From positions 289 to 64,288 of the forward strand of contig DASWID010000101.1 in assembly GCA_036397855.1 (NCBI GenBank): a stretch of 64,000 nucleotides of DNA. Direction: 5' to 3'. Both the position numbers and the translations under genes were made by a program. Origin of the DNA: Thermodesulfobacteriota bacterium (GTDB lineage Bacteria > Desulfobacterota_D > UBA1144 > Nemesobacterales > CSP1-2). Within the stretch, counting starts at the first letter, position 1, and the number at the start of each line of letters is the position of its first letter. Of this stretch, positions 3,657 through 25,476 are shown piece by piece. The notes beneath the pieces were generated by a model. That model was given only the letters and a program-made list of their open reading frames with translations. It ran no database searches and was not told the DNA's origin.

Positions 3657-6029
3657 ATGAACTCGATTTTCTTAAAATATCCTATACTACCTCCACTAAT
3701 CGGGTATATAGCTGGGATATTTATAAGTGAAAATTTGGGCTACGAATGGATTTTTATCCTTTTTATCTCACCAATACTCGGGCTGCTGTCTTTATTTTTT
3801 GCGGATCTTAGATTTCTCTTGTTTATACCCCTCGGAGTTCTGTTTTCAATAAGTCTCACCCCACCCGAAGATCACATTGCAAACTTTGTTGGAAATGAAA
3901 TTGACCTTTTGGGAACTTTATATAGATCCCCAGAGAGTAGAATAGAGGGTTCAAGGTTGTTTGTTGACGTTCGGGAGATTGTAGTAAAGGGTAAGAAAGA
4001 GTCGGCAACAGGAAAGGTGATCATTAATACTAAACAGAGAATTCGTGGTTTATCTCGAGGGGATTATGTAAGGGTTGTAGATACTGTTTTAAAGCCATAT
4101 AGAACATTTAAGAATCCCGGGAATTTTGATATCAAGCGTTATTATGGAAGGCAGAAGATATATGCCTATGGATTCGTTTCCGGAATGGATTCGATAATTT
4201 TATTTGAGCCAAAACTAACGCCTTTTTACTCTCTAAGGACAATAGATAAGGCTAGAACCAGGTTTGGGGATTTTGTAAGACACAGGTTTCCTCAATCTGA
4301 GGGAGAGATACTGAACGCAATCACAATTGGAGATCAGGGAGGAATGCCAAACGGGCTGAGAGATCTTTTTTCAGCAACTGGTATTGCTCATCTGCTCTCT
4401 ATATCCGGACTGCATGTAGGGGGTGTAGCGCTTGCTTTCTATTTAACGATAAAATGGATTCTGAAAAGGTCGGAGTATCTCTTGATTAGGTGGCAGGTCC
4501 CAAGGCTTACTGCTGGACTAACCATAATACCTTTATTCATCTACATGGCAGTAGCGGGATGTGCTACTCCCGTAGTAAGAGCATTTTTAATGATTGCGGT
4601 TTATCTTATGTCAGTGGTACTTGGTAAAGAGGAAAATAAATTGAATACGCTAGGCGCTTCTGCGTTTATAATTTTGCTGTGGCAACCATGGGCGCTTTTT
4701 CAACTCTCATTTCAACTCTCTTTTGCCGCTGTTTTGGGAATTATATTTGTCAATAGGTTTTATCCATTAAAAGTCGGTAGCTTCTCCGAAAAGATAATCT
4801 CAAGCTCTAAGATAACATTGGGTGCCTCGTTTACAACTATACCCTTAATCGTGAATTCCTTCAGTATTTTATCATTGATATCACTGCCCGCTAATTTAAT
4901 ATTTGTACCCCTGGTTGAATTCTTAATAGTTCCCCTAGGGTTGATTTCATTTTTGGTGTTCTCTGTAAATGAGTACTTAGCAATGCCATTTCTCACTCTC
5001 AATGTTTATCTGATTAGAATTCTTATCTTTGGAATAGAAAAGCTCGTTGAGATACCTTTTGCTTCTTTAACGGTTACATCTTTAGGAATTACGGGTTGGC
5101 TTATGTATATATTGATAATTCTGGTTGTTTGTTTTAAGAAGGTTTTCCCAAATCTCAAATATGTTTTGCCATTTTTTATTGTAGGGTTGATTATGGCGAT
5201 GACTATTAGTAAAGTGAGTAACTCTAAAAGTGGGTATCTAGAATTAGATTTCATAGACATTTCAAATAGGAATATAGTCTTCGTTAAGCTTCCTCAAGAA
5301 AAGACAATTCTCGTCGATGGCGGTTATTCCTTCTTCAATATGGGTGGTTATATGGAAAGAAGCGTAATTTCCCCTTTTCTTCTGAATTCTGACGTTACGA
5401 CCATCGATTATCTAATTTTAACTACATTGGACAAGGATCATTTAGAGGGTGTCAAATACTTGTTACGGAGATTTGAGGTTAAAAGACTCTGGACAAATGG
5501 AGTAAAGTTGGATGGAGAGCTCTGGAAATTGGTCAAAGGTAAGAATATAAGCTGGAAGAATCTCATGGATGAAGTTGAAAATTTTGAAATAGAGGGTGTT
5601 CGGATCGAATTTTATAAACCCAGGGGTTATTATAAAATTGCAGATTCCTCTCGACCCTATCCACTTATATTTAAGTTAACATTTGGAAACATAAATTATC
5701 TATTGGGAGAGTCTTTAGGAGACTTATCTGTGCAACGGGAATTGATCGATATTTACCATAATAGGATTCAATCGAACGTGCTATATATTCCTCAATTAAA
5801 GGGTAATTTAAGGTCATTTAATGATTTTTTGAATATCGTCTCACCAGAGATCTTGATAGTTAATCGTGGAAAAGATAGTCTTAGAAAATATCTTGATAAA
5901 AATGTGCCAAATTTCGACACTCATAGGAAGTCGAAATTCGTTGAAACTACAAAAGAGGGGATGGTTGCAATAAGTACAGACGGCAGGGAGATTAGGAAGA
6001 GGACTTTCAATAATGGCGATTTGTTGTAG
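3657..6029 (+). CDS. comEC: ComEC/Rec2 DNA-internalization competence protein with C-terminal metallo-beta-lactamase domain
   Basis: N-terminal DUF4131-like region, polytopic competence membrane domain, C-terminal MBL fold (DKDHLEG); start abuts the ispF stop. Confidence 0.8.
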   Translation: MNSIFLKYPILPPLIGYIAGIFISENLGYEWIFILFISPILGLLSLFFADLRFLLFIPLGVLFSISLTPPEDHIANFVGNEIDLLGTLYRSPESRIEGSRLFVDVREIVVKGKKESATGKVIINTKQRIRGLSRGDYVRVVDTVLKPYRTFKNPGNFDIKRYYGRQKIYAYGFVSGMDSIILFEPKLTPFYSLRTIDKARTRFGDFVRHRFPQSEGEILNAITIGDQGGMPNGLRDLFSATGIAHLLSISGLHVGGVALAFYLTIKWILKRSEYLLIRWQVPRLTAGLTIIPLFIYMAVAGCATPVVRAFLMIAVYLMSVVLGKEENKLNTLGASAFIILLWQPWALFQLSFQLSFAAVLGIIFVNRFYPLKVGSFSEKIISSSKITLGASFTTIPLIVNSFSILSLISLPANLIFVPLVEFLIVPLGLISFLVFSVNEYLAMPFLTLNVYLIRILIFGIEKLVEIPFASLTVTSLGITGWLMYILIILVVCFKKVFPNLKYVLPFFIVGLIMAMTISKVSNSKSGYLELDFIDISNRNIVFVKLPQEKTILVDGGYSFFNMGGYMERSVISPFLLNSDVTTIDYLILTTLDKDHLEGVKYLLRRFEVKRLWTNGVKLDGELWKLVKGKNISWKNLMDEVENFEIEGVRIEFYKPRGYYKIADSSRPYPLIFKLTFGNINYLLGESLGDLSVQRELIDIYHNRIQSNVLYIPQLKGNLRSFNDFLNIVSPEILIVNRGKDSLRKYLDKNVPNFDTHRKSKFVETTKEGMVAISTDGREIRKRTFNNGDLL

Positions 6030-21592: not shown

Positions 21593-21859
21593 GTGAGACA
21601 TGATTCGTTAAGCAGAGCTTTTCACGGAGCTTGTGAGAGGTCTAATATCAAAGGCTTGAGATTCCATGACCTAAGGCATACTTGTGCAACAAGATTAGTA
21701 GAAGCTGGGGTTCCACTTCATACTGTTTCGAAACTACTAGGTCATTCTACAATTAGGATGACCGAAAGATATAGCCAACCCGAAGAAAGTTTGAAGGGAG
21801 CAGTCGAAATTCTGGAAAAACTAGAAACTCGCTTTAGCCAATCGAAAAGAATTATTTGA
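21593..21859 (+). pseudogene. tyrosine integrase C-terminal fragment 1
   Basis: RFHDLRHTCATRLVEAGVPLHTVSKLLGHSTIRMTERYSQ without an N-terminal domain. Confidence 0.8.
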
Positions 21860-21919
21860 AATAATCGATAGAAGTACTGCTTTCAAAATCAGACCTATAT
21901 ATTTGCATAAACGCTTGCG

Positions 21920-22084
21920 ATGAATGGAGTTGATCTGATAGCAGTTCAGGAACTCTTAGGACAAAAATCTATAGTTATAAAAAAGCATTATTCACGCTCA
22001 ATACCGGCGTATAAGAGAAGGGCCGTTGAATCAATTGCTTTAACAAAAAAAGTGCGGAATAAGACAAATGGCAAGAATCCGTAG
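21920..22084 (+). pseudogene. tyrosine integrase C-terminal fragment 2 (paralog of the 10034-11116 integrase)
   Basis: MNGVDLIAVQELLGQKSIVIKKHYSRS...KRRAVESIAL aligns to NGVDLVTVQELLGHRSIVMTKRYSH...KKRAIESV of the intact integrase. Confidence 0.8.
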
Positions 22085-22317: not shown

Positions 22318-23301
22318 TTATTTCAATTCATTCAGTTTTTTTTGGAACGCTCTTAATTTATCGATAATATGATCGAACGTGGGATATGCACCGAAAATCA
22401 TTTCCTCCATCGCTTCGTAATCTTCCATCAATGACTTAAGCCTTGATTCGTCGGGTATTAGCTTTATTGTTCTAGGGGTTGCCAGATCATATTTTGCCCA
22501 ATTACTGTAATAAAAACGTTTTTTAAAATTCACAACATCATCCAACAACTTCAAATTCTTTAATCCCTTCATCTCAATATCTGTATCCAACATTTTATAA
22601 ACATCATAATAATGCCTCGAATAACGAGCTGGATGTGACTTTCCAGCTGGCCTGTGTGCCTCAACATGCAGTATTGTTACTTTCTCCCAAAATGTTCTTT
22701 CAGGAACGATAGAAACGACGTTAGCAAACGAATTTTCAAATTTTTCTGGAAATACCTCTGCTGCATAAGGCCGTATCGAGTATTTAGAGCACGGAACCAT
22801 TGAACTGATGGGCCCAATTTCTAATCGTATTTCTGGCCGCAAGTATGTACCAGAAAAAAGTTTGGGATATTGGATAATAACTGTTTGCCCATCGTATGAA
22901 TCCACTCTTGCGTCGCACGGCGGTTGCATTAAACCATTCAAAATGGGCAACAAGTCTCTGCCGATATAGTCCTCCGCTAATTTGTTTAATTTCTTGTTGA
23001 AAATATCTTGTTGTGTGTTGCTTCGGCCTTCGTATGGATCCTCATCGGTCAACACCGACCAATCTAATACCAAATCTATATCTTCTGAAAAACGATCAAT
23101 TACTTGGAAGCACTTTGAGAGAGTTGTTCCACCTTTAAACCTAAACAACTCTTTTAGGTCGTCATCCTCGAAGAGCTTCATTAATGCCCAGCAGATCCAA
23201 AAGTCTTTTTCTATCGCTGCTCCTTGCATCCCTTTACGTGCAGCTGTTTCAAGAAAAAGTTCTTCACGCTCGTTTTTGTTAAAAGTAGCTACTTTCTTCA
23301 T
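22318..23301 (-). CDS. AbiEii/AbiGii nucleotidyltransferase toxin (DUF1814)
   Basis: FKGGTTLSK...RFSEDIDL nucleotidyltransferase motif; 4-bp overlap with the upstream AbiEi gene. Confidence 0.8.
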   Translation of the reverse strand: MKKVATFNKNEREELFLETAARKGMQGAAIEKDFWICWALMKLFEDDDLKELFRFKGGTTLSKCFQVIDRFSEDIDLVLDWSVLTDEDPYEGRSNTQQDIFNKKLNKLAEDYIGRDLLPILNGLMQPPCDARVDSYDGQTVIIQYPKLFSGTYLRPEIRLEIGPISSMVPCSKYSIRPYAAEVFPEKFENSFANVVSIVPERTFWEKVTILHVEAHRPAGKSHPARYSRHYYDVYKMLDTDIEMKGLKNLKLLDDVVNFKKRFYYSNWAKYDLATPRTIKLIPDESRLKSLMEDYEAMEEMIFGAYPTFDHIIDKLRAFQKKLNELK

Positions 23302-23906
23302 TCCTTATTTTTAAATATAGCTTTAATAATTTCATAGACCCAGCTTGTTGTGTATTTTGTATCTTTCAAAATACGCCCGTGTTTTTCGGAACGAAAATAA
23401 TTGAATATGGTTTGCCTTTGTTGTTTGGTCAGTGTTTTATTACCTAATGCTTTAATCGCTTGAACCACTAATTCACTCTCTGGGTATTTCAGACCTATAT
23501 CTTTTAAGGTTGTTTTCTTAAATTCCAGTTCAATATTGCCAATCTGATACACCTTACTCTTACCATCAGTGTAGTAAAGATATTTAGTAGGAACCTGTGT
23601 TGATAGACCTAACACGTTCAACGCCGCATTACCTGAAATCTGAATTTTCCATCCAAATTTCCGGGCGAAAACCTGTGCCACTTGATCAACGTCTGGGCTT
23701 AAATCTTGCTCTAATAATTTGCTGTATTTTGGGTAATCGTATATACCACGTATAACCCTGCGAATGTGACCTTTATCTAATAAGCGACTCAAAACCTTAT
23801 CAATGGTATTTGCATTCCCCAAATCGGCAAAATCATTTTTGAAAAACGCCCAACCCCTACCATTGCCATAAATCCTGCTTATTACTTTATTTTCAATGGA
23901 TTGCAT
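23298..23906 (-). CDS. AbiEi family antitoxin / transcriptional regulator
   Basis: N-terminal ISRIYGNGRGWAFFKNDFADLG...IRRVIRGIYDYP pattern of AbiEi (DUF6088-like). Confidence 0.75.
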   Translation of the reverse strand: MQSIENKVISRIYGNGRGWAFFKNDFADLGNANTIDKVLSRLLDKGHIRRVIRGIYDYPKYSKLLEQDLSPDVDQVAQVFARKFGWKIQISGNAALNVLGLSTQVPTKYLYYTDGKSKVYQIGNIELEFKKTTLKDIGLKYPESELVVQAIKALGNKTLTKQQRQTIFNYFRSEKHGRILKDTKYTTSWVYEIIKAIFKNKE

Positions 23907-24039
23907 AATTTTAAGCTTATTATTCTGTCAGAAAAAAGATACCATTTTTCTGACAGGAAACAAGTATTTCCTGATCATGCACTGAGTGTTTTAACTGATG
24001 GGATTGAGGTTGTGAGTTGAATTAGAGACAGAGTTGTGT

Positions 24040-24153
24040 ATATATACCTAACTCTGTCTCTAATCTCGCGGAGTGATGAATTATGTTACAATAGTGTGTT
24101 GTATGATGGTTTGTATATATACCTTACCATCATACAACACACTATTGTAAAGA
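24040..24153 (+). promoter_or_regulatory. two perfect palindromic operators (11-bp arms gagacagagtt/aactctgtctc; 24-bp arms ttacaatagtgtgttgtatgatgg/ccatcatacaacacactattgtaa)
   Basis: Read directly; both spacers contain gtatatatacct; immediately upstream of the ATG at 24156. Confidence 0.7.
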
Positions 24154-24155
24154 AA

Positions 24156-25040
24156 ATGAAGCGAACTCAAAAAGATTGGGCTTCCGAGTTTCGAATTTAC
24201 CTACGGGAAATTCCGCCAAAGGTATTTAGCTGCGTAGAGCTCGAACCCCTTTTTGATAATCTTAGGAGACGAAAGATCCTTCCCTCTCGACTTAGCTATA
24301 ATAAATTTCTAGCTGAAGTAATAAGTAGAAATATGATTAATAAAACCAACATAAGATATGTGGGCAAAGCAAATTCGAGAAGAAAAGAGTTTATCCGCTA
24401 CACCTATAAGTCACCCTCATCATTCTCTATTGCATTATCACTACGTTCGAGGAGTTATCTATCTCATATCAGTGCATTGTTTTTGCATGGTCTGACTGAG
24501 CAGCCCCCCGAGACAATAATTGTAAACAAGGAACAGTCTGCAAAGAACAGTTCAAACGAATTAACCCAAGCGGGTATAGACCGAGCATTCAAAAAAGCCG
24601 CTCGTCAATCTAATTATATCTGGGCGTGGAAAGATTCGCGTTTTATACTTTTGAATGGAAAACAAACTGGGGATTTTGGAGTCATCAATATAAAAATTGA
24701 CACTGGAGAGCATCTTCGAGCTACAAACCTCGAGAGAACATTGGTAGACATTGTCGTAAGACCTAGCTACTCCGGAGGGGTAATTGAGATAGTAGAAGCT
24801 TATCGACGTGCTCGAAAAGTCCTTTCCACAAAGAAAATTGTTCAAATTTTAAAGCGACTAGACTATGCATACCCATATCATCAGTCTATAGGATTCGTGA
24901 TGGAACGTGCAGGTTTCGAGAAACAACAGTTAGATCTACTTAGGAATGAAGGTATCAACTTTGACTTTTATCTTGACTATCAGATCAGAAATAAGGCCTA
25001 CGACGATACTTGGAGATTATATTTCCCAAAGGGGCTTTGA
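24156..25040 (+). CDS. AbiEi-like winged-helix regulator (orphan antitoxin-like)
   Basis: YLSHISALFLHGLTEQ motif resembles the AbiEi N-terminal wHTH; start moved from 24036 to Met41 because the annotated N-terminus covers the palindromes. Confidence 0.5.
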   Translation: MKRTQKDWASEFRIYLREIPPKVFSCVELEPLFDNLRRRKILPSRLSYNKFLAEVISRNMINKTNIRYVGKANSRRKEFIRYTYKSPSSFSIALSLRSRSYLSHISALFLHGLTEQPPETIIVNKEQSAKNSSNELTQAGIDRAFKKAARQSNYIWAWKDSRFILLNGKQTGDFGVINIKIDTGEHLRATNLERTLVDIVVRPSYSGGVIEIVEAYRRARKVLSTKKIVQILKRLDYAYPYHQSIGFVMERAGFEKQQLDLLRNEGINFDFYLDYQIRNKAYDDTWRLYFPKGL

Positions 25041-25280
25041 TTTATTAAGCTCGAAACGCAGCAAAGAACTTTTAATTAATTTCGATCATTGTGAGTTTTT
25101 TATTTATTTCGAAATAAGTTGGTATCTAGTTTTTGTATTGCATTTTTCTTAGCTTCTTGCTTTGTGAGGCTCAGATATTTATCTTGAAAACTATAATAAC
25201 TCAAGAAAGTTTGTAGCCAAATCTGTAGCCCATTGAAATTGATGAGGAGGCGATAGGACGTAACCCCCTGATTTTATTGG

Positions 25281-25356
25281 TGGAGATGAGGGGATTCGAA
25301 CCCCCGACCTCCGCCTTGCGAAGGCGGCGCTCTCCCAAACTGAGCTACATCCCCAC
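25281..25356 (-). tRNA. tRNA-Ala (anticodon CGC)
   Basis: GGGGATG acceptor with G3-U70, anticodon loop TTCGCAA, T-loop TTCGAAT, CCA encoded. Confidence 0.85.
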
Positions 25357-25476
25357 TTTTTATACCAAAATCATTCGGTTTTTGTATAAATTAGATATAA
25401 CTAACTTGAAATTTTATCCAAAATTGCTAAAAAATACTAACCGAAAGTAAATTAATTAAAGAAATTAAAAAACTAC

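Follow-up and report, generated by a model that had tools for sequence, protein, structure and literature searches.

The window analyzed here, a 64-kb stretch of DNA, carries three AbiE-type genes arranged head-to-head and several inverted repeats in the intergenic region between them (Table 1). Two of the genes lie on the reverse strand and encode a nucleotidyltransferase toxin, named "AbiEii/AbiGii toxin family protein" by NCBI, and a short antitoxin of the DUF6088 type, which also gave matches below the cut-off to Pfam AbiEi_4 (7e-4) and NCBIfam TAA_AbiEi (4e-6). An earlier note on this DNA had recognized an AbiEii/AbiEi pair with a 4-bp overlap, and this is borne out by the PF08843, DUF6088, and PADLOC matches and by the 4 bp that the genes share at 23298-23301. 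A further perfect inverted repeat, absent from that note, lies 19 bp away from the start codon of the DUF6088 gene and is a putative operator of the DUF6088-AbiEii operon. HMM matches, the 4-bp overlap, and an inverted repeat of its own place the pair at 22318-23906 fully within the DUF6088-type AbiE systems. Divergently transcribed from it, as had been claimed, is a longer gene, termed AbiEi-L below, which NCBI lists as a "hypothetical protein" (HEX9666417.1). Its product is 294 aa long from the ATG at 24156 rather than the 295 aa given before, and a 334-aa reading from a GTG at 24036 was rejected given that it crosses both palindromes and misfits the N-termini of the family. The two tyrosine-recombinase gene fragments on the other side of the pair likely derive from a decayed integrated element; no tRNA-derived direct repeat delimiting an island was found, and the GC content of the region is not distinctive.

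Table 1. Genes, inverted repeats, and flanking features of the AbiE-type locus in the window.
Feature	Position	Strand	Evidence or detail
Two tyrosine-recombinase gene fragments	21593-22084	+	PF00589, E=8e-18 for 21593-21859
AbiEii nucleotidyltransferase toxin gene, 327 aa	22318-23301	-	Pfam PF08843, E=1.8e-35; PADLOC AbiEii PDLC02289, 5e-103
Short AbiEi antitoxin gene, DUF6088 type, 202 aa	23298-23906	-	Pfam PF19570, 2.9e-37; PADLOC AbiEi PDLC02226, 1e-62
Perfect inverted repeat	23925-23956	.	CTGTCAGAAAAA-N8-TTTTTCTGACAG
Distal palindrome	24021-24064	.	Perfect 15-nt arms 24021-24035 / 24050-24064; 14-nt centre GTGTATATATACCT
Core 1	24037-24049	.	TGTATATATACCT; family consensus wwGGTATATATACCww (position weight matrix)
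Proximal palindrome	24086-24150	.	Perfect 25-nt arms 24086-24110 / 24126-24150; 15-nt centre TTGTATATATACCTT
Core 2	24112-24124	.	TGTATATATACCT; family position weight matrix
Long AbiEi-fold gene AbiEi-L, 294 aa	24156-25040	+	PADLOC AbiEi, AF2, Foldseek
tRNA-Ala(cgc)	25278-25354	-	ARAGORN; 237 bp downstream of AbiEi-L

The 294-aa protein was related to AbiEi by fold and by HMM. The curated models of Pfam and NCBIfam gave nothing at threshold (Pfam AbiEi_1 scored 12.9 bits, E=0.13, where the cut-off is 22.2), phmmer returned no match among PDB sequences, and a profile built from 40 homologues matched AbiEi in the PDB weakly (E ~0.13), so that a fold search was needed. The AF2 model (pLDDT 94.7) places helices at residues 8-17, 26-38, and 48-57 and strands at 62-68 and 78-84 ahead of the C-terminal domain, and its top Foldseek matches were AbiEi 6Y8Q (E 6e-7) and Rv2827c 1ZEL (E 2e-5), both with a probability of 1.0; the model and these matches agree with the domain of AbiEi / COG5340 antitoxins. 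PADLOC likewise matched the protein with AbiEi PDLC02267 at 4e-24 and with 16 weaker AbiEi models. The HMM matches and the modeled fold together show an AbiEi protein of the AbiEi/Rv2827c fold, in agreement with the AbiEi likeness that had been claimed for it, with a predicted N-terminal wHTH at about aa 8-84 and a conserved C-terminal domain at aa 89-294. The motif LSHISALFLHGL, previously taken for the wHTH, is present at aa 102-113 and belongs elsewhere, forming helix 104-110 past the wing, the first helix of the C-terminal domain, and its region aligns with residues 68-90 of 6Y8Q, where that domain begins. The reading frame is intact and keeps 27 of 27 family-invariant residues, including every one of those in the C-terminal domain.

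Ranked by arm length, the top three perfect inverted repeats of the window (spacer <=20) all fall in the 249-bp intergenic region, and in block shuffles the arms reach 13 nt at most. Two perfect inverted repeats had been described here, and both exist, with measured arms of 15 and 25 nt instead of 11 and 24; they do share a spacer element, which proved to be the 13-mer TGTATATATACCT, its two copies spaced 75 bp apart. The distal site is thus a 44-bp near-perfect palindrome, and the proximal one ends 6 nt before the ATG. As single-stranded DNA, they fold at -13.6 kcal/mol (z = -7.5) and -25.5 kcal/mol (z = -9.35), respectively, and none of 200 shuffles folded as well in either case. The core reads TGTATATATACC in the window, compared to a near-invariant family centre of GGTATATATACC, and the cores of the window clade are somewhat degenerate, with T replacing G at a single position in the window and further variants at the related loci L001, L128, and L129. 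Sites orthologous to the distal palindrome are present in L001 and L133, and the proximal palindrome differs from its orthologues at these two loci by a symmetric insertion of ~10 nt in both arms. A consensus promoter scan located none at either core. We also considered that the core could be a sigma-70 -10 box, which might explain its invariance, and rejected this given that TATATA lacks the final T, the family position weight matrix shows no conserved -35 at a fixed distance, each locus has 2 to 4 copies, and GG/CC flanks occur in 90-94% of sites.

AbiEi-L belongs to a large, unannotated, and uncharacterized family: at least 627 homologues without a Pfam domain were found, with matches in more than 560 species-level genomes, and several homologues are labeled "predicted transcriptional regulator of viral defense system" by JGI. 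Approximately 120 homologous loci from many phyla each have 2 to 4 upstream palindromes with the exact core GTATATATAC, and the core was found upstream of essentially every homologue. There are 190 copies of GTATATATAC in 25.7 kb upstream of 80 homologues versus 6 in 688 kb elsewhere. A metagenome scan aimed at close relatives gave only distant homologues (33-54% identity), and these 34 loci became a hold-out set, in which 42 core copies lie upstream and 1 elsewhere. The sites fall within ~130 bp of the start, the centre of the proximal one usually 18-44 nt from it. These results support the palindromes as the predicted cognate control sites of the AbiEi-L family. Conservation of the protein is lowest in the N-terminal domain, with a mean commonest-residue frequency of 0.36 versus 0.64 in the C-terminal domain; a wHTH this variable would not ordinarily be expected to face an operator core that is invariant across phyla.

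Only the 12-bp centre of the palindromes is conserved. No consensus exists for the arms, which vary even among the sites of a single locus but are 83-92% self-complementary. Arm length clusters at 14-17 nt, and complementarity falls from 0.92 at offset 10 to 0.69 at 15, 0.41 at 19, and ~0.3 at 22. The arms of close relatives keep 168 of 251 paired positions, whereas ~68% of positions have changed at offsets 24-32, and the changes between orthologous sites are often multinucleotide and mirrored. The idea that the arms are specificity determinants coevolving with the N-terminal domain was rejected given that arms at different sites of a locus show random-level identity. The palindromes had been proposed as operators, which holds insofar as they are family-specific predicted control sites and does not hold for simple operators, since covariation of the arms around a conserved 12-bp centre is not explained by simple sequence-specific repressor binding.

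In the family at large, the partner is usually a convergent AbiEii whose gene shares a 24-nt 3' overlap with that of the antitoxin; our literature search on this convergent AbiEi/AbiEii arrangement found nothing relevant, and no conserved motif or palindrome was found upstream of the convergent AbiEii genes. AbiEi-L is not the first gene of a two-gene operon with an AbiEii toxin, being followed by 237 bp and a tRNA-Ala gene, and the AbiEii of the wider family is convergent and not codirectional. At the window locus, the convergent AbiEii is absent: a search of 24700-25400 for a remnant found none, matches downstream of the genes of the window clade were insignificant, no second AbiEii occurs within the 64-kb window, and the tRNA-Ala(cgc) gene leaves no room for one. 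The neighboring AbiEii and the usual convergent partner fall into separate subfamilies (E ~1e-4). The window clade forms a monophyletic group, to which P0012, with a convergent AbiEii, is sister. In all six clade loci with enough contig (the window, L001, L128, L129, L130, and L133), AbiEi-L stands head-to-head with a DUF6088-AbiEii pair, in six different genomic contexts and at 55-78% protein identity; the three proteins codiverge, with pairwise identities of AbiEi-L and AbiEii correlated at r=0.87. The earlier note had suggested an orphan or second antitoxin whose toxin is missing or novel, and the usual toxin is indeed absent, but the constancy of the trio and its codivergence argue against a stray orphan. 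DUF6088-AbiEii pairs at 67-73% identity were also found without AbiEi-L, and thus such a pair does not require the third gene. Repeats of the form TTGTC..AAAA / TTTT..GACAA, equivalent to that at 23925-23956, precede DUF6088 in L001, L128, L129, and L133 and also at pairs without the third gene (L136 and L137, less clearly L138), where the GGTATATATACC core is absent. This shows, in the sequences compared, that the two predicted operator types segregate with their regulators. Joining of contigs L005 and L137, which come from one MAG and both end inside the intergenic region, was tried, and no sequence overlap was found.

Among characterized systems, the closest structural match of AbiEi-L is the AbiEi of Streptococcus agalactiae (6Y8Q), with which it shares a conserved motif where the C-terminal domain begins. 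That antitoxin autoregulates through inverted repeats in its promoter, and the region upstream of AbiEi-L also has repeats, which are family specific and highly enriched. The S. agalactiae protein is ~195 aa long, is bicistronic with its toxin, and has a single pair of 23-bp repeats separated by 3 bp, whereas AbiEi-L exceeds it by 100 aa, is encoded on its own, and is preceded by two palindromes that share a core. Rv2827c of the Rv2827c-Rv2826c system of Mycobacterium tuberculosis (1ZEL) is of similar length (293-295 aa in PDB chains) and likewise combines a wHTH with an extended C-terminal domain (Foldseek probability 1.0, TM 0.57), although sequence identity is ~13% and there is no sequence-level PDB match. 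For both antitoxins, published work describes autoregulation via one or two inverted-repeat pairs that lie no further than ~130 bp from the start codon (PMC7319586), in line with what the earlier note had stated for AbiEi. In Prv2827c, the two pairs lie between -1 and -131 and are bound for negative autoregulation (PMC7319586), which resembles the two repeat sets of AbiEi-L in number and position. The Rv2827c repeats, however, share a consensus along 23 bp, whereas AbiEi-L sites conserve the 12-bp centre with site-specific arms, and the Rv2827c toxin lies downstream in the same operon, whereas AbiEi-L has no downstream toxin and that of its wider family is convergent. The DUF6088-type AbiE systems described so far consist of two genes, and the third gene of the window falls outside them.

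We consider it reasonably probable that AbiEi-L is an autoregulated long antitoxin-regulator, with the palindromes as its operators, and that it is linked to the neighboring AbiE pair as a second antitoxin. AbiEi and Rv2827c place one monomer on each repeat; if AbiEi-L behaves alike, one molecule would bind each half-site via its N-terminal wHTH, and up to four molecules would cover -135 to -6 from the ATG, shutting their own promoter in negative autoregulation. The arms would not be read as sequence but would be held self-complementary, which suggests that the sites probably need, or are shaped by, intrastrand pairing with cruciform or hairpin potential. The cognate convergent AbiEii would have been lost in the window clade, and the gene would now be stably tied head-to-head to the DUF6088-AbiEii operon, which would retain its separate and different putative operator. 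Given that the family-invariant residues of the C-terminal domain are all kept, AbiEi-L most likely still neutralizes an AbiEii-type nucleotidyltransferase, for which the neighboring AbiEii is the most plausible target. For MenT/AbiEii toxins, autophosphorylation induced by the antitoxin has been reported (PMC11375011). We infer DNA binding, repression, and toxin neutralization by AbiEi-L and, with them, a module of two antitoxins and one toxin.

Self-complementary arms could also arise if the protein read only the 12-16-bp core and the arms were a functionless by-product of hairpin-templated strand switching (quasipalindrome correction), in which replication hairpins nucleate at a strongly conserved, perfect palindrome whose (TA)4 centre melts easily and one arm is copied onto the other. 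The gradual decay of complementarity with distance, the mirrored multinucleotide changes, including the symmetric insertion in the proximal site of the window, and the absence of a strand-specific wobble signal would all fit such a process. We nevertheless regard it as somewhat unlikely because arm length clusters and because the arms are far better conserved in close relatives than the DNA further out, which suggests selection on them. The lack of a wobble signal weighs against another reading, in which the 294-aa gene has a long 5' leader, transcribed from a promoter further upstream, and the palindromes act in it as RNA hairpins, such as protein-binding or processing sites. Both palindromes fold very stably, the proximal one ends just before the ATG, and a weak sigma-70-like CTGACA-17-GATCAT lies upstream of both (23950-23978), but shuffles yield promoter matches just as good (4 found versus 5.2 expected), the symmetric motif carries no strand information, and Rfam gave no family match, only subthreshold chance matches to miRNA hairpins. 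Among 209 mismatched arm positions, G:T/T:G (35) was no commoner than A:C/C:A (31) or chance, which indicates a DNA-level feature. The RNA reading was rejected as highly improbable on the absent G:U excess and the absent Rfam family.

The 294-aa gene could instead be a decaying orphan left after toxin loss, unrelated and functionally unconnected to the AbiE pair that it adjoins by coincidence on a degraded island. Consistent with this, no remnant of the convergent AbiEii is detectable, the region is bordered by integrase fragments and a tRNA, the cores show slight degeneracy, and DUF6088-AbiEii pairs stand alone elsewhere. A decaying gene would sit poorly with an intact reading frame, a full set of family-invariant residues, palindromes that are still perfect, and a trio that codiverges across six contexts, and we find this account very unlikely. 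A more speculative extension of the favored reading concerns how the sites are recognized. Perfect palindromes with an alternating TA centre extrude cruciforms most readily, as described in work on DNA supercoiling, and the window palindromes resemble these by analogy rather than by family, being perfect, 30-65 bp long, and centred on alternating TA; to our knowledge, such palindromes are not operators of toxin-antitoxin regulators. The GGTATATATACC palindromes could be structure-dependent operators in which the (TA)4 melts under negative supercoiling, the arms extrude a cruciform, and AbiEi-L recognizes or stabilizes it, a proposal that we hold to be distinctly unlikely. If it were true, AbiEi-L would bind the cruciform rather than, or besides, linear duplex, and antitoxin expression would be coupled to DNA topology, which is perturbed by phage infection or replication stress. 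A family of defense or toxin-antitoxin regulators across many phyla would then have an operator working via DNA secondary structure, and the toxin of canonical members would be controlled only through the fixed 24-nt convergent 3' overlap.

In summary, nucleotidyltransferase toxin-antitoxin systems of the AbiE/MenAT type are widespread phage-defense and stress modules, and our analysis identifies a large branch of them that has been annotated only as "hypothetical." The AbiEi-L branch is unusual in that its core is invariant across phyla, while the arms evolve freely and stay self-complementary, which makes it a clean system in which to test a role of DNA secondary structure in gene regulation. 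Its layouts are also unusual and nonoperonic, being either convergent with a fixed 24-nt overlap or a solo antitoxin docked on another AbiE pair. The trio in the window would allow a direct test of whether two different AbiEi-type antitoxins govern one toxin.

The protein encoded divergently from the DUF6088-AbiEii pair, here termed AbiEi-L and labeled "hypothetical" by NCBI, proved to be AbiEi-like, as the earlier note had proposed. Pfam and NCBIfam gave nothing at threshold for this protein (AbiEi_1, E=0.13), and phmmer found no match among PDB sequences. PADLOC AbiEi models did match it (best PDLC02267, 4e-24, aa 74-288). AlphaFold2, given 40 homologues, produced a confident model (pLDDT 94.7, pTM 0.90), whose top structural matches in the PDB by Foldseek were S. 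agalactiae AbiEi (6Y8Q, E 6e-7) and then M. tuberculosis Rv2827c (1ZEL, E 2e-5), both with a probability of 1.0. In the model, three helices and a beta-hairpin wing make up a wHTH at aa 8-84, after which comes a large C-terminal domain, an architecture that agrees with what has been published for AbiEi and Rv2827c. By Foldseek, the C-terminal domain also weakly resembles adenylyltransferases and MenT toxins, as is already known for AbiEi from the same publication. The sequence LSHISALFLHGL (aa 102-113), previously read as the wHTH motif, contains a helix (104-110) that lies past the wing and aligns with 6Y8Q residues 68-90. The sequence is thus not the wHTH but a signature of the family where the C-terminal domain begins. 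The protein has 294 rather than 295 residues, and the NCBI start agrees with the family alignment. The JGI/ENA start, GTG 24036 (334 aa; 24036-25040), was rejected: it translates both palindromes and mismatches the N termini of homologues.

Coordinates of the AbiE genes, inverted repeats, and neighboring features, with two convergent loci from other genomes
Feature	Position	Strand	Details
AbiEii nucleotidyltransferase gene	22318-23301	-	327 aa; PF08843 E=1.8e-35; PADLOC 5e-103
AbiEi gene, DUF6088 type	23298-23906	-	202 aa; PF19570 2.9e-37; PADLOC AbiEi 1e-62
AbiEi-L ORF, divergent from AbiEi/AbiEii	ATG 24156 to 25040	+	294 aa
Inverted repeat, 25-nt arms	24086-24110 / 24126-24150		
Inverted repeat, 15-nt arms	24021-24035 / 24050-24064		
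Inverted repeat, 12-nt arms, DUF6088 side	23925-23936 / 23945-23956		CTGTCAGAAAAA-N8-TTTTTCTGACAG
Tyrosine-recombinase (integrase) gene, two decayed fragments	21593-21859, 21920-22084 (span 21593-22084)		PF00589
tRNA-Ala(cgc) gene	25278-25354		
Convergent AbiEi-L/AbiEii, locus L003 (among L002-L084)	4001-5698		
Convergent AbiEi-L/AbiEii, locus L007 (among L002-L084)	3932-5635		

We found at least 627 AbiEi-L homologues of about 290-300 aa, without a Pfam domain, and at least 565 confirmed loci in GTDB species representatives (Acidobacteriota, Planctomycetota, Myxococcota, Eisenbacteria, Verrucomicrobiota, Bacteroidota, and others). Conservation across the family is lowest in the N-terminal domain (mean commonest-residue frequency of 0.36 versus 0.64 for the C-terminal domain), where R81 in the wing strand is the sole invariant residue. 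The window protein keeps all 27 family-invariant residues, which argues that its putative toxin-directed C-terminal function is still under selection.

The 249-bp intergenic region is the site of the three longest perfect inverted repeats in the 64 kb. Two of these had been reported, rightly, but with arms under-counted as 11 and 24 nt where they measure 15 and 25 nt, and the third (23925-23956) had been overlooked. Block shuffles of the window gave arms of at most 13 nt. The only other perfect inverted repeat with 12-nt arms lies at 1719-1749 (7-nt spacer). The 13-mer TGTATATATACCT stands at the centers of both long palindromes, 75 bp apart, and their single-stranded DNA folding gave z-scores of -7.5 and -9.35. 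In 80 of the at least 565 loci, the exact 10-mer GTATATATAC occurred 190 times in the 25.7 kb upstream of AbiEi-L genes (up to 320 nt before each gene), at 2-4 copies per locus, whereas the remaining 688 kb contained it 6 times; 34 hold-out metagenome loci gave 42 core copies upstream versus 1 elsewhere. The core position weight matrix reads wwGGTATATATACCww (G 94%, C 90%) and is flat further out. The center of the proximal site is usually 18-44 nt from the start codon, and neighboring sites are mostly spaced by about 47-65 or about 97-113 bp. A similar arrangement is seen in the Rv2827c promoter, where two pairs of 23-bp inverted repeats lie between -1 and -131 and each repeat is bound by a monomer, resulting in negative autoregulation (PMC7319586). 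Given the core enrichment upstream of homologues and this Rv2827c-like geometry, we assign the two window palindromes as predicted cognate operators of the 294-aa protein. Oddly, the core stays constant from phylum to phylum, even though the N-terminal domain varies so much.

The arms flanking the core behave differently. Offsets 1-5 from the center are fixed by construction, given that sites were picked by the exact 10-mer. Offsets 9-13 had no sequence consensus, yet the arms were complementary in 83-92% of sites versus about 26% when shuffled (85-97% in the hold-out loci). Further out this share dropped: it was 52% at offset 16 and had reached about 30% by offset 22. A single protein reading the arm sequence cannot be the cause, since arms of different sites in one locus were only 23-32% identical, the random level. 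There was no sign of RNA structure on either strand, because arm mismatches had no G:T excess (G:T 35 versus A:C 31 of 209) and Rfam gave no match. Between orthologous sites of close relatives, in pairs that are phylogenetically non-independent, 60 arm positions had changed on both sides with pairing kept, 18 on one side only, and 5 on both sides with pairing lost; the arms were conserved much better than DNA further out. Compared with its orthologues in L001 and L133, the window proximal site has an insertion of about 10 nt in both arms, placed symmetrically. The arms may have arisen through hairpin-templated strand switching, as a mutational by-product next to a palindromic core under strong selection, or selection may act on their intrastrand pairing as DNA and so on the capacity to form a cruciform or hairpin. 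A (TA)4 center clamped by GG/CC is the sequence type that extrudes most easily.

The repeat on the DUF6088 side has counterparts before DUF6088 in the three-gene loci. A TTGTC..AAAA spacer TTTT..GACAA repeat also precedes pairs that have no AbiEi-L, in L136 (2950-2990), L137 (105-140), and, less clearly, L138, and the GGTATATATACC core was absent from all three. Because the repeat is kept and the core is absent in these pairs, a separate operator type appears to belong to each regulator, and two autoregulatory circuits are thus predicted to stand back to back in the intergenic region. The spacer of the DUF6088 repeat often contains GATACC, and the complement of this hexamer, GGTATC, is similar to one half of the AbiEi-L core (GGTATA). 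In the Thermodesulfobacteriota MAG JBBDIN01, an AbiEi-L gene begins 143 nt from the end of contig L005 (1-143), and a DUF6088-AbiEii pair begins 159 nt from the end of contig L137 (1-159). TTGTAGCTTAAC is present in each of these contig ends, and their comparison found no sequence overlap; the assembler may have split a single three-gene module here, close to the palindromes.

Among 80 genome loci, about 75 have the AbiEi-L gene convergent with a gene for a roughly 285-aa AbiEii, and this AbiEii is of another subfamily than that of the window (E about 1e-4). In 52 of the 68 loci where it could be measured, the two genes share exactly 24 nt at their 3' ends, with both stop codons inside the overlap; in 14 loci the overlap is 33-39 nt. 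This arrangement, uncommon among toxin-antitoxin pairs, may point to coupling by antisense transcription or transcriptional interference. Upstream of the convergent AbiEii we found no GGTATATATACC core, long palindrome, or shared operator, with one exception for the core: in L034, two GTATATATAC cores (5823 and 5917) lie near the AbiEii start (4802-5884, minus strand), one just within its 5' end and the other just upstream.

Downstream of AbiEi-L in the window, there is no convergent AbiEii, just 237 bp and then the tRNA gene; a search for a remnant was negative, and no second AbiEii was found within the 64 kb. Relative to the family norm, the toxin partner is indeed missing, as had been suspected. 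The gene is not a stray orphan, given that all six members of its clade with enough contig (window, L001, L128, L129, L130, and L133; 55-78% identity) show it head-to-head with a DUF6088-AbiEii operon, in differing genomic surroundings. The identities of AbiEi-L between members of the clade track those of the neighboring AbiEii (r=0.87 for the pairwise values). The clade is monophyletic in a neighbor-joining tree, and the three-gene layout is derived, since the sister P0012 retains the convergent AbiEii. DUF6088-AbiEii pairs (67-73% identity) occur without AbiEi-L in L136 and L138; AbiEi-L is therefore an add-on that the pair does not require. Defense-island contexts were seen in L138 (1-6612), where the AbiE module has a reverse-transcriptase gene on one side and type I restriction-modification genes on the other, and in L002 (3151-6159), where it adjoins a TIR-NACHT protein gene. 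On the window contig, from a Thermodesulfobacteriota MAG, the DUF6088-type AbiEi gene precedes AbiEii with a 4-bp overlap, and the bracketing of the three genes by recombinase fragments and tRNA-Ala(cgc) suggests a decayed integrated element; neither a tRNA-derived direct repeat nor a GC anomaly was found around them.

Collectively, our analysis leans toward a picture in which AbiEi-L autoregulates via the palindromes and neutralizes an AbiEii-type toxin. AbiEi-L would bind half-sites of both palindromes with its wHTH and repress its own promoter, and the C-terminal domain would neutralize the toxin, most plausibly the neighboring AbiEii; by analogy, it would do so through antitoxin-induced toxin auto-phosphorylation (PMC11375011). 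Autoregulation is the more confident part of this picture, and action on the neighboring toxin the less confident one. The finding in the earlier note stands, and its interpretation was broadly right once arm lengths, motif assignment, and protein length are corrected. AbiEi-L represents an AbiEi-fold regulator family outside curated models, with a phylum-spanning invariant operator core, structurally covarying arms, and non-operonic toxin layouts, and the window member is of the derived type, a solo gene attached to a second AbiE system.
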